In this document: positions 1,095 to 3,730 of the stretch, piece after piece | How positions within the stretch are numbered: position 1 is the stretch's first letter | How the letters are laid out: every line of letters begins with the position of its first letter | DNA from: an uncultured Eubacteriales bacterium | GTDB taxonomy: Bacteria > Bacillota > Clostridia > Christensenellales > CAG-138 | Assembly (NCBI GenBank): GCA_902802575.1 | Contig: CADCMN010000014.1 | Coordinates: 3,793-67,792 of the forward strand | Direction: 5' to 3' | Length of the DNA: 64,000 nucleotides | Made by a program: the position numbers and the translations under genes | The notes under the pieces: model-generated | Told to the model about the DNA's origin: nothing | The model's database searches: none | The model's input: only the letters and a program-made list of their open reading frames with translations

Positions 1095-2600
1095 ATGGCT
1101 TATTACTTCAGCGAACCGTCTCATACCTTCTCCGAGTATCTGCTCGTTCCCGGTTATTCTTCCTCGGCCTGCACGCCTCAGAACGTGTCTTTGGTCACTC
1201 CCCTGTGCAAGTTCAAGATGAATGAGGCCCCGGCCCTGACCATGAACATCCCCCTGGTCTCCGCCGTGATGCAGTCCGTGTCCGGCGAAAAGCTGGCGGC
1301 GGCCCTGGCAAGGGAAGGCGGCGTGTCCTTCATCTTCGTGTCCCAGACCATCGAGAGCCAGGCGGCCATGGTCCGGGCGGTGAAGAAGTGCAAGTCCGGC
1401 TTCGTTCGCAGCGATTCCAACGTGACCCCCGAATCCACGCTGAGCGATGTGATCGCCCTCAAGGAGCGCACGGGCCACTCCACCATCGCCGTCACCGCTG
1501 ACGGCACCCCCGATGGGAAGCTGTTGGGCATGGTCACCAGCCGGGACTATCGCGTGAGCCGCATGAGCCCGGATACCCCCGTCCGGGAGTTCATGACCCC
1601 CTTCTCCTCCCTGGTATACGCCTATGAGGGCGTGAGCCTTCGGGAGGCCAACGACATCATCTGGGAGCACAAGCTCAACACCCTGCCCGTCATCACCCGG
1701 GACGGCTGCATGTCCTCCTTTGTGTTCCGCAAGGACTACGACGCCCACAAGGACAACCCCCTGGAGCTGCTGGACGACCACAAGCGGTACGTGGTGGGCG
1801 CAGGCGTCAATACCCGTGACTATGAAAAGCGCATCCCCGCCCTCATCGAAGCCGGAGCAGACATCCTCTGTATCGACTCCTCCGAGGGTTTCACCGAGTG
1901 GCAGCAGCGCACTATCGACTTCGTCCGCCGGAACTACGGCGATTCCGTGAAGATCGGCGCGGGCAACGTGGTGGACGGAGACGGGTTCCGCTTTCTGGCG
2001 GAGGCCGGCGCCGACTTTGTGAAGGTGGGCATCGGCGGCGGCAGCATCTGCATCACCCGGGAGACCAAGGGCATCGGCCGCGGCCAGGCCACTGCCGTGC
2101 AGGACGTGGCGGCCGCCCGGGACGAGTATCTGAAGAAGACCGGCGTCTACGTGCCGGTGTGCGCCGACGGCGGCATCGTTCAGGATTACCATGTGACGCT
2201 GGCCCTGGCCATGGGCGCGGATTTCTGCATGCTGGGCCGATACTTCGCCCGGTTCGACGAGAGCCCCACCAACAAGGTCCTTATCAACGGCAGCTACATG
2301 AAGGAATACTGGGGCGAAGGCAGCGCCCGTGCCCGGAACTGGCAGCGGTACGACAACGGCGGCGACAAGAAGCTGACCTTCGAGGAGGGCGTGGATTCCT
2401 ATGTGCCCTACGCCGGCCCTCTGCACAACAACGTGGAGACCACTCTCCACAAGGTCCGGTCCACCATGTGCAACTGCGGCGCCACCACTATCGCCGAACT
2501 TCGGGAAAAGGCTCGCCTCACCCTGGTCTCCCCCGCCTCCATGGTGGAGGGCGGCGCCCACGACGTGCTCCAGAAGGACAGCCGGTACTTCGCGAACTAA
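1095..2600 (+). CDS. guaB: IMP dehydrogenase with CBS pair
   Basis: [13 protein letters not shown] catalytic Cys loop, ADGGI, YWGEGS, EEGVD. GAGGAGG RBS before ATG 1095. Confidence 0.95.
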
Positions 2601-2624
2601 ACAAAAATTTCTCTGAAAAAATCC

Positions 2625-2652
2625 TTGCTTTTTTCTCTCGGATGTGTATAAT
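2625..2652 (+). promoter_or_regulatory. Sigma-A promoter of tRNA-Ala
   Basis: TTGCTT-16bp-TATAAT with an AT-rich UP element. Confidence 0.6.
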
Positions 2653-2671
2653 ACTTATTGCGTTCATTCGA

Positions 2672-2747
2672 GGGGCATTAGCACAGTTGGTAGCGCGCAA
2701 CGTTCGCAATGTTGAGGTCAGGGGTTCGAATCCCCTATGCTCCACCA
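2672..2747 (+). tRNA. tRNA-Ala (anticodon CGC)
   Basis: 76-nt cloverleaf: acceptor GGGGCAT/ATGCTCC with G3:U70, anticodon arm CAACG-TTCGCAA-TGTTG, T-arm AGGGG-TTCGAAT-CCCCT, encoded CCA. Confidence 0.97.
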
Positions 2748-2777
2748 AAAAACAGCCCATCCGGGTGGTTGTTTTTT
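2747..2777 (+). terminator. Intrinsic terminator after tRNA-Ala
   Basis: AAAAAACAGCC...GGTTGTTTTTT hairpin with T-tract. Confidence 0.75.
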
Positions 2778-2791
2778 GCTGTCTCATTTCT

Positions 2792-3050
2792 GGGGATTCG
2801 AACGGGTCCGGTAGTGAATCAGGCCACAGTGTGGCCTGAGAGCCGGACCCCGACCAAGCCCGCAGGCGCGAATTCGAATCCCCTATGCCTTGATTCGAAC
2901 GGGCGCAGAAGTGAATGAAGCCCCAGTGGGGCTTCAGAGCCTCCCCTGGGCTTCGCCCGGCCTTGCTGAAAAAGCCGCGCTGTGGCGTTTTCCTGGCGCT
3001 CGGCCCCCCTCCCAAGCCCACAGGCGCGAATTCGAATCCCCTATGCTCCA
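2792..3050. repeat. Two tandem tRNA-T-loop-associated hairpin elements (REP/MITE-like), each ending in a copy of the tRNA-Ala 3' end
   Basis: Units at about 2795-2888 and 2892-3050 share GATTCGAACGGG-N6-AGTGAA-[9-bp stem, AGT loop]-GAGCC...CCAAGCCCRCAGGCGCGAA-TTCGAATCCCCTATGC. The last 16 and 20 bp match tRNA 2725-2740 and 2725-2744. Confidence 0.85.
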
Positions 3051-3499
3051 TACCTTTCCATTATTATAAATAACTCATCCGTGTCATCCACCCGCTGCCG
3101 ATGCTCCGTCATGCAGAAGCCGTGGCGCTCATAAAGGCGGATGGCGCCGGGATTCTTCTCGAGAACAAGCAGACGCCTGGCCCGGGTGTGCCGGAGAGCA
3201 TGCTCCAGCAAAGCGCTGCCAACGCCCTTGTTATGAAAAACGGGTTCCACAAACAGCTTTTCGATCTCGTCCCCGTTGATCCGAATGAAACCCTTCACCA
3301 CACCGTCGTCAAAGACATAGGTGTGTTCGATCTTATCCGGCTGATCCAGATATTCCCGCATCAAAACAGGCACGTTCAGCTCCGAGAAAAAATAAGCGTC
3401 GTTTCGAAACAGCGGATAGAAGTGAAGACGGTAGTTAACTATTTCTATCTCCGCAAGGCGGCAACTGTCGCCCGGGACGGCTTTACGGATGCAGGACAT
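3041..3499 (-). CDS. GNAT family N-acetyltransferase
   Basis: LFVEPVFHNKGVGSALL acetyl-CoA motif A and N..AIRLYERHGF motif B. AAGGAG RBS. Confidence 0.9.
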   Translation of the reverse strand: MSCIRKAVPGDSCRLAEIEIVNYRLHFYPLFRNDAYFFSELNVPVLMREYLDQPDKIEHTYVFDDGVVKGFIRINGDEIEKLFVEPVFHNKGVGSALLEHALRHTRARRLLVLEKNPGAIRLYERHGFCMTEHRQRVDDTDELFIIMERYGA

Positions 3500-3675
3500 G
3501 GTCGTGGCTCCTTATATTGTACTGTCTATACTGTAACGCAACCGGTCGTCATTTGCAAACGGTTTTCCCTCGCCCCCCCTCTTTGAACGATTCGCGCGAT
3601 CGCCATTTCGCGCCGCCCAATTCAAAATAGCACGGTATTTCAATATGTTTTACTTTTTTTTAGCAAAGGATTCTA

Positions 3676-3704
3676 TTGTCAAATCCTCTTTTTTTTGATA
3701 TAGT
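3676..3704 (+). promoter_or_regulatory. Sigma-A promoter of the DUF4364-pcrA-ligA operon
   Basis: TTGTCA-17bp-TATAGT with extended -10 TG. Confidence 0.65.
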
Positions 3705-3730
3705 GTTCAATAATAGGGGGAAAAAAGGGT

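Follow-up and report, generated by a model that had tools for sequence, protein, structure and literature searches.

tRNA genes are classic landing sites for integrating elements, and the tRNA fragments found at them are usually treated as inert scars. Behind its tRNA-Ala(CGC) gene, an uncultured Eubacteriales bacterium (CAG-138, Christensenellales) carries several such fragments with small foldback sequences between them, which raises the question of what this intervening material is: scar, recombination module, structured RNA, or terminator. We addressed this question in a stretch of 64,000 nt from contig CADCMN010000014.1 (assembly GCA_902802575.1), hereafter the window, and in related loci from other genomes. 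An earlier note on this DNA had described two related units behind the tRNA and had proposed that they represent a mobile, tRNA-targeting hairpin family or, alternatively, a structured RNA or single-stranded DNA element.

Organization of the Array in the Window

The tRNA-Ala(CGC) gene is intact, encodes its CCA, and occupies positions 2672-2747 of the plus strand (ARAGORN; Rfam tRNA, 62.5 bits); an extended -10 promoter was read from the window sequence upstream of it. The neighbors of the array are housekeeping genes, with guaB upstream and a convergent GNAT acetyltransferase, DUF4364, pcrA, and ligA downstream (Pfam), and the G+C content of the window is ~60% throughout. As listed, the guaB ORF (774-2600) encodes 608 aa versus 501-517 aa in two of the related loci described below (L001 and L003), and its IMPDH domain begins at residue 117. 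Judging from the sequence, the true guaB start is probably further downstream than listed.

The tRNA is followed by a short tandem array of ~100-base foldback units in which each intact unit ends in a copy of the tRNA end. The repeated core, TTCGAATCCCCTATGC(TCCA), first appears within the tRNA itself, as the segment from T-loop to 3' end (2725-2744), and recurs as exact copies of 16 nt at 2873-2888 and 20 nt at 3031-3050. At three or fewer mismatches, this segment has three matches in the window compared to 0.56 expected, and none of 100 shuffles gave three. The third and last copy, also on the plus strand, has no CCA and abuts the flank. There, the GNAT gene (3041-3499, minus strand; ORF list and GNAT domains) converges on the tRNA, with its stop codon (3041-3043) inside the core copy. 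In both the window and L006, the last two codons and the stop of GNAT are supplied by the tRNA-end copy.

Between the tRNA and the first unit lies a linker (2745-2791, plus strand), identified by inverted-repeat search and from the sequence, that comprises CCA, a terminator-like hairpin with a T-run, and a short spacer. The arms of this hairpin are at 2743-2757 and 2767-2781, and it is absent from the output of a simple terminator scan. Beyond the linker, two blocks are common to both units described by the earlier note, a 50-nt 5' block (2795-2844 and 2892-2941, 80% identity) and a 41-nt 3' block (2848-2888 and 3006-3046, 93% identity). Every detail of that description that we checked holds, including the tRNA-end copies, a spacing of 12 nt behind GATTCGAACGGG, the flanking AGTGAA and GAGCC, the nesting of repeats in unit 1, and the hairpins at 2819-2839 and 2916-2936, which differ at three pairs, all three of them compensated. 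The motif AGTGAA-N9-AGT-N9-GAGCC occurs twice in the 64-kb window versus 0.25 expected (at least two in 4 of 100 shuffles), and CCAAGCCCRCAGGCGCGAA occurs twice versus 0.08 expected (two in 1 of 100 shuffles).

Unit 1 (2792-2888, plus strand) is intact, as indicated by its fold and by a score of 120.8 bits with R1, a covariance model built on the units. On the plus strand, the outer stem P1 pairs 2792-2802 with 2873-2883, P2a pairs 2804-2812 with 2842-2850, an internal loop places AGTGAA (2813-2818) opposite GA (2840-2841), P2b pairs 2819-2827 with 2831-2839 around an AGT loop, and P3 pairs 2858-2860 with 2865-2867. The tRNA 3' end copy, located by repeat search, is at 2873-2888. The fold has a predicted energy of -54.8 kcal/mol (z -6.3). 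The terminal inverted repeats of the unit, GGGGATTCGAA and TTCGAATCCCC, are 11 nt long and 100% complementary, and they are longer in L006. An inverted-repeat search further revealed that the 5' arm, GGGGATTCGAAC, is complementary at 12 of 12 positions to GTTCGAATCCCC of the tRNA itself.

The remainder of the array is better described as two units than as one. About 60 extra bp had been attributed to unit 2; these are not an insert, since R1 reads a truncated second unit and a decayed third unit in their place. The truncated unit 2a (2889-2941, plus strand; repeat search, with a partial R1 match at 2908-2940 of 25.6 bits) comprises a short linker (CTT), the 5' block, and a perfect P2b hairpin (2916-2936), and lacks the 3' strand of P2a and the 3' block. 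The decayed unit 2b (2947-3046, plus strand) is matched by R1 over its full length at 30.4 bits and comprises a degenerate 5' arm, TGGGCTTCGCCCGG, and an intact 3' block, with its P2 region swapped for unrelated sequence that has a terminator-like hairpin (2974-2986) and a T-run, together spanning 2974-2996 and listed by the terminator scan. No further copies were detected in the window or in the flanks of the related loci when R1 was run with filters off; the next best match among 85,398 bases scored 19.4 bits.

Related Loci in Other Genomes

Genome contigs were scanned with 20 bases of the unit's own 3' block as the query, which returned six loci (L001-L006). The reach of this single scan is loci that bear this variant of the 3' block. 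One of the six, L002, is without a unit and was discarded as a chance match. The ~97-nt unit is accordingly present in five other species-level uncultured Clostridia genomes, most of them from rumen or gut. Four loci feature the same tRNA-Ala(CGC), then a terminator, then units (two each in L001 and L006, one each in L003 and L004). The fifth, L005, comprises one unit with no tRNA within 2 kb and adjoins the same GNAT and DUF4364 genes. The comparison of copy number that the earlier note proposed reveals that unit number and type differ between related genomes. Every unit found in the window and the scan loci is at one orthologous locus (four scan loci behind tRNA-Ala(CGC), the fifth by GNAT and DUF4364), and none is found elsewhere in the window.

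The loci reveal a modular organization, where a module extends from the T-loop-to-3'-end core of the tRNA up to the next core copy. L006 repeats the entire module, from the tRNA 3' end through CCA, terminator, and spacer to the unit; a full module comprises a tRNA-restoring part (core, CCA, and terminator), a short spacer, and the 97-nt foldback adjoining the next core. As in the tRNA, a terminator follows the end of unit 1 of L006 (...CTCCACCA); the linker itself is repeated after this unit, and bases before the unit lengthen P1 by AGCAT/ATGCT. The tRNA-end copy extends up to 23 nt, including CCA, in L003 and L006. The bounded segments are 97-158 bp, with core copies on both sides and no gene inside. 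Downstream of the single unit of L003, a stretch at about 2045-2075 (ACAGAATCACAAATGC) agrees with the core at 10 of 16 positions, no more than chance could give, although it may represent a decayed copy of greater age.

The genes that border the array vary as well. Upstream is guaB (window, L001, L003, and L004) or a peptidase M16-like gene (L006). The GNAT gene is at 672-1232 in L006, is truncated in L005 (about 2030-2256), and is absent in L003 and L004, where the gene next to the unit points away. This absence and truncation suggest that GNAT behaves as accessory DNA tied to the array. We considered whether GNAT is a cassette bordered by another site beyond its far end and rejected this, as no R1 match was detected in window positions 3500-3730 and a 9-nt resemblance there is within chance. 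In L005, the unit and the truncated GNAT form a block that sits beside DUF4364 and pcrA in inverted orientation, and the inversion breakpoint coincides with the outer edge of the unit 5' arm. At the junction in this part of L005 (1836-2030), GTTCGAATCC is joined to TCACGG, versus ...(A/C)GAATCGCTCGG in L003 and L004; on this sequence, the junction may represent a weak secondary T-loop-like site upstream of DUF4364.

The placement of the units between convergent genes in the window and in L006, and hairpins that are stable on both strands, would be consistent with an insulator or terminator cluster between the tRNA and GNAT genes. However, no T-run was found after P2 on either strand and the terminator scan lists no site at the unit hairpins, the unit persists in L003 and L004 without GNAT and with the next gene pointing away, and the tRNA-end copies and conserved loops would go unexplained. 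We consider a terminator cluster very improbable.

Signs of Exchange in Linkers and Units

The linkers behind the same tRNA carry either of two unrelated terminators, type A (window and L006) or type B (L001, L003, and L004); the linker is at 2745-2791 in the window, 1788-1838 in L001, and 1882-1933 in L003. Between the first and second units the linker is short in the window and L001 (TATGCC and two or three bases), and linker content overall is either 10 nt or about 60 nt including a terminator (window, L001, and L006). Identity among the window, L001, L003, and L004 is 86-93% across 600 nt of guaB, and the distribution of linker types A and B disagrees with guaB similarity. It follows that exchange has affected the DNA directly behind the T-loop. 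Between the window and L003, for example, identity falls from 93% in guaB and 83% in the DNA directly before the tRNA to 52% in the linker, whereas unit 1 of the window differs from the L003 unit at 8 of 97 aligned positions.

The units themselves appear as combinations of parts. Three types of P2b hairpin (a, b, and c), several P2a types, and two 3'-block types assort independently, and hairpin types a, b, and c hold different positions in different genomes. In L006, the two linkers are nearly identical and the two units differ at five stem pairs and in 3'-block type. Units of the Y type are missing the T-loop TT at the junction.

These observations qualify the earlier proposal of a mobile hairpin family that targets tRNA genes. 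The family is real, related, and structured, but only one orthologous locus was found with the 3'-block-anchored scan. Unequal or homologous exchange across the repeated tRNA ends could have produced this variation without any movement as free elements. A side observation concerns a gut contig (L008, MT837637.1), in which a related tRNA-Ala(CGC) at 1963-2036 has no encoded CCA (TCCA then CGG) and has an end that resembles the last core copy of L006 (TCCA then CGCC). This sequence hints that the CCA and terminator now on the window's tRNA may have arrived with a module.

A Conserved Fold With Paired Substitutions

To evaluate the fold across genomes, 8 intact units (7 distinct sequences) from 6 genomes were aligned over 98 columns, and a consensus structure was derived with RNAalifold. 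In the consensus, P1 pairs the 5' arm GGGGAUUCGA with the tRNA-derived UCGAAUCCCC, P2a and P2b comprise 9 pairs each and are separated by an internal loop (AGUGAA opposite GA), P2b is closed by an AGU loop, and P3 comprises 3 pairs. Across the alignment, 96.3% of cells are paired. Two-sided changes were observed in 12 of 31 pairs, compared to 5.1 in shuffles, and none of 500 shuffles reached 12; when partners were slid by 1-3 columns, only 0-1 two-sided pairs remained. The view that structure is conserved over sequence, formed on the two hairpins of the window, is thereby borne out among 8 units from 6 genomes, as is the view that each unit ends in the T-loop-to-3'-end segment of the tRNA.

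Changes in the stems are all from one Watson-Crick pair to another, with no one-sided (G-U type) change in any of the 31 pairs; the sole G-U pair is invariant, closes P2a, and reads U-G on the plus strand only. In P2a, the arms of which are 29 nt apart, 5 of 9 pairs covary. Differences per column amount to 0.265 and 0.291 in the stems, 0.139 at unpaired positions, and 0.098 in P1. Single units have z scores of -4.0 to -7.3 when folded as RNA and about -6 as DNA, with both strands folding equally well. Taken together, the exclusive use of Watson-Crick replacements and the equal folding of both strands fit DNA better than RNA. All 8 intact units and both partial units of the window are on the tRNA strand.

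Three further structural candidates were rejected. By inspection, the internal loop AGUGAA/GA does not conform to a kink-turn, its non-bulged strand being one base short of the textbook form. A tRNA-like minihelix, in which bases before the unit pair with the tail, can be drawn in L006 and not in the window, L001, L003, or L004. Neither a decayed whole tRNA gene nor a minus-strand tRNA was detected in the units by ARAGORN or Rfam.

The pattern of substitutions bears on the possibility that the units are inert remnants of old integrations, in which pairing is kept by mutation rather than by selection, through template switching at quasi-palindromes during replication and gene conversion between neighboring copies. 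One-step templated correction would yield exactly the intermediate-free changes between Watson-Crick pairs that are observed. Decay is indeed evident in the window, where truncation or degeneration has affected the second and third units but the P2b hairpin at 2916-2936, with its short loop, has stayed perfect; moreover, no expression signals and no enzyme were found in the window. However, neutral decay is not expected to leave loops and junctions with about half the differences per column of the stems, nor units that are far better conserved than the adjacent linker, and templated correction is less likely between the P2a arms given their distance, where more than half of the pairs still covary. 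We therefore regard inert remnants as unlikely.

The same conservation could be a property of RNA. The units may be small structured RNAs produced by read-through of the tRNA-Ala transcript. In that case, the three stems P1, P2, and P3 would make up a three-way fold, the tRNA-like tail (which extends as far as CCA and, in L006, has a terminator) would aid processing of the 3' end or its stability, and the tandem copies would be paralogues. Such RNAs would account for the strong covariation, for loops that are about half as variable as stems, for units that are better conserved than the linker, for the location of all units on the tRNA strand, and for the invariant U-G that closes P2a on that strand only. 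In the window, the tRNA terminator is weak and not listed by the simple scan, and in L006 unit 1 has a tRNA-like end and a terminator, with AGCAT/ATGCT giving an acceptor-like stem. Against this, the stretch that separates the units from the tRNA holds a hairpin with a T-run, and no sigma-70-type promoter was found in it on the plus strand. In Rfam 15, tRNA was the sole match at E<=10 for window positions 2500-3300 and at E<=1 for L001, L003, L005, and L006; a 'permuted tmRNA' match (16.2 bits versus a gathering score of 47) is carried by the T-arm of the tRNA itself and was rejected. Further, the stems lack G-U variation despite 12 covarying pairs, the acceptor-like extension is missing in the window and in L001, L003, and L004, the shorter strand of the kink-turn-like loop falls one base short, and the exact start of the tRNA copy in the T-loop is left unexplained.

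The units can also be compared to known tRNA-linked small RNAs (trailers, and the tRNA-like modules of bacterial Y RNAs and tmRNA), with which they share strand, position after a tRNA, a tRNA-like tail, and a conserved fold. They differ from these in having no Rfam match, no promoter, and no G-U variation, and in that the T-arm/acceptor stem is absent in 6 of 8 units. Considering all of this, a structured RNA is somewhat unlikely.

Searches for Recombinases and Parent Elements

The window and related loci were searched for recombinase genes. A Pfam scan covered 56 ORFs of the window (10 that were hand-chosen and 46 of the 57 in a greedy ORF list, all of at least 80 aa) and identified no integrase, transposase, or HUH domain. 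No recombinase was identified among 12 ORFs in the flanks of the related loci, and no recombinase gene adjoins the array in any of the 6 genomes. The statement that no enzyme gene is nearby stands for the ORFs searched in the window and loci flanks.

Evidence of a parent element was likewise absent from the sequences searched. A blastn search with 2745-3060 returned no phage similarity, and its only plasmid match (Gordonia, 33 nt, E 0.3) was taken as chance. When the last 40 nt of the tRNA were compared to phages by blastn, 1112 records were returned. The four best of these, small 'Bacteriophage sp.' contigs (L007-L010), carry tRNA-Ala genes in full but no unit, with R1 scores of at most 17.3 bits; one of them, L008, has a related tRNA-Ala(CGC) without units at a locus that is not orthologous. 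No full-size parent element bearing the 3' block was identified, as 5 of 5 true scan matches are mini-units. For a cis-mobilizable element (CIME), origin by decay of an ICE or IME and excision or movement by a neighboring element's integrase would be expected; no parent turned up in the phage and plasmid searches or the genome scan. Inspection of the window and the five loci revealed no target-site duplication around the units.

Comparison With Small Mobile Hairpins and Integron Sites

An involvement of HUH/Y1 transposases (RAYT, IS200) had been suggested on the basis of the short hairpins and their fixed flanks. Like MITEs, REP sequences, and IS200/IS605 hairpins, the units are small and non-coding, have terminal inverted repeats or hairpins, and would depend on an enzyme acting in trans. 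Unlike them, the units have no target-site duplication and a fixed place behind one tRNA, and their terminal repeats copy the tRNA T-arm; neither a Y1/HUH transposase gene or other transposase nor a dispersed copy of the hairpin was found in the 64-kb window. Nothing we found favors this suggestion.

A further likeness is to integrons. The attC sites of integrons are ~60-140 nt long and have paired terminal inverted repeats, with structure kept over sequence and conserved unpaired bases. Integron cassettes are arranged head-to-tail at one docking site in shuffled order, and some arrays are without an integrase. In these properties, the units of the array resemble attC sites and cassette arrays. 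We also considered whether a unit is a recombination site that acts as folded single-stranded DNA, like integron attC or CTX phage attP, with a recombinase encoded elsewhere. P1 would present the T-loop duplex, P2, P3, and the unpaired bases would give strand and protein specificity, and the array would represent cassettes docked at the T-loop.

Several observations agree with a folded single-stranded site: structure is kept while sequence varies, unpaired bases are conserved, stem replacements are Watson-Crick only, the single-stranded DNA fold has a z of about -6, and P1 is complementary to its target at 12 of 12 positions. The arrays are head-to-tail at a single site with an order of unit types that differs between genomes, the linkers resemble cassette cargo in their differing content (either 10 nt or about 60 nt including a terminator), and the inversion of unit and GNAT in L005 breaks at the outer edge of the unit 5' arm. 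Other observations disagree. The attC core consensus is RYYYAAC and GTTRRRY, whereas the arms read ATTCGAAC and (A/G)TTCGAAT, in which the fourth core base is C rather than a purine, such that they do not fit. No integron integrase (IntI) gene is beside the array, where the neighbor is guaB or a peptidase M16-like gene, and no recombinase gene of any kind adjoins it in the 6 genomes. Y-type units, without the T-loop TT at the junction, are a misfit for a fixed crossover point, and the window and the unit-anchored loci revealed neither a circle nor an empty site nor another array. The units are also unlike attC in their tRNA T-loop docking site, in the extra side hairpin P3, and in their Clostridia host; integrons are not known to occur in Firmicutes. 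On balance, a folded single-stranded site is quite unlikely. The specific version of this idea, an attC-like cassette platform in gut and rumen Clostridia with the tRNA-Ala T-loop as docking site, a recombinase encoded elsewhere, and cargo that ranges from nothing to a terminator to perhaps the GNAT gene, is doubtful to a slightly greater degree.

Proposed Mini-Modules at the tRNA-Ala T-Loop

Duplication in this array starts in the T-loop, the array has a modular structure with a conserved fold, and copy number, unit type, and linker type differ between species. The reading that we tentatively prefer is that the array comprises att-bounded mini-modules without genes, placed at an integration site in the T-loop of tRNA-Ala(CGC) and reshuffled by recombination between repeated tRNA ends. 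Support for att-bounded modules comes from the repeated segment, which starts in the T-loop and runs to the 3' end, from the repetition of a whole module in L006, from the visible exchange, and from the lack of a promoter before the units. A T-loop-to-3'-end repeat together with an intact tRNA, as expected of an att duplication, is present in the window, L001, L003, L004, and L006; an integrase gene in or next to the bounded DNA, which would also be expected, was not found in the window or loci flanks. Integration sublocations are the subject of Williams 2002, which PMC9897764 and PMC3146451 cite.

Published descriptions provide precedents for several of these features. Partial tRNA copies are described as products of integration (PMC9897764; bioRxiv 10.1101/2020.12.28.424599), and the link to T-loop crossover made by the earlier note fits the descriptions of integrating elements in PMC9897764 and PMC3146451. 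The ssrA islands of Dehalococcoides are described as tandem islands bounded by 20-bp repeats; insertion is inferred to occur in the T-loop, and each repeat is immediately preceded by a conserved motif of 15 bp (PMC3146451). At the corresponding place, the window has a 19-nt motif just upstream of the tRNA-end repeats. CIMEs, according to PMC5704250, keep attL and attR, have lost integration and transfer genes, and accrete in tandem; here too, core copies flank each module and no gene lies within.

By analogy, the array may be a miniature counterpart of tandem islands or CIMEs built at tRNA and tmRNA genes by site-specific recombinases, a statement that we hold as tentatively as the reading to which it belongs. 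In the form described in PMC3146451 and PMC5704250, the ssrA islands and the ICE/IME/CIME accretions of streptococci resemble the array in that repeats of the 3' end of an RNA gene bound modules, in the T-loop start, in a motif upstream of the repeats, in head-to-tail arrangement, in variable module number, and in that some modules are without their own integrase. The differences are those of scale and content. Tandem islands and CIMEs are kilobases long whereas array modules are 97-150 bp without any gene, no integrase was found in the array, window, or flanks, and the array body is a covarying foldback with ends that are inverted copies of the target.

If the array is composed of att-bounded modules, the first duplication would have been produced by a recombinase crossing over in the T-loop. 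The modules would not be self-moving; instead, recombination via the repeated cores would reshuffle the array, whether through a recombinase acting in trans or through exchange of the unequal or homologous kind. The foldback would be the part under selection and would act at the DNA level as site architecture. Since the 5' arm is complementary at 12 of 12 positions to the T-loop/T-stem of the tRNA, one folded strand presents the target duplex, and the outer stem P1 may in this way rebuild, in one strand, the duplex of the tRNA T-loop and T-stem.

Several points weigh against att-bounded modules. Neither an integrase or recombinase (window and loci flanks), nor a full-size parent, nor an empty site (unit-anchored loci) was found, and double-stranded circles as small as 100-150 bp are unlikely to serve as substrates for recombination. 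Nor would one expect a scar to preserve 18 base pairs through 10 double changes, or loops that are steadier than stems, so a function of the fold must be assumed. Finally, the units are better conserved than the linker, which a functional RNA explains equally well.

Implications

At this locus, the material between tRNA fragments is only ~100 bases long and gene-less, yet it retains a three-helix fold that is kept by paired substitutions in six genomes. If this fold is a substrate of recombination, the array would comprise the smallest att-bounded module described, and it might represent a folded-DNA site outside of the integron and Xer systems. If the fold is instead that of an RNA, it would constitute an undescribed tRNA-linked RNA motif of rumen Clostridia.
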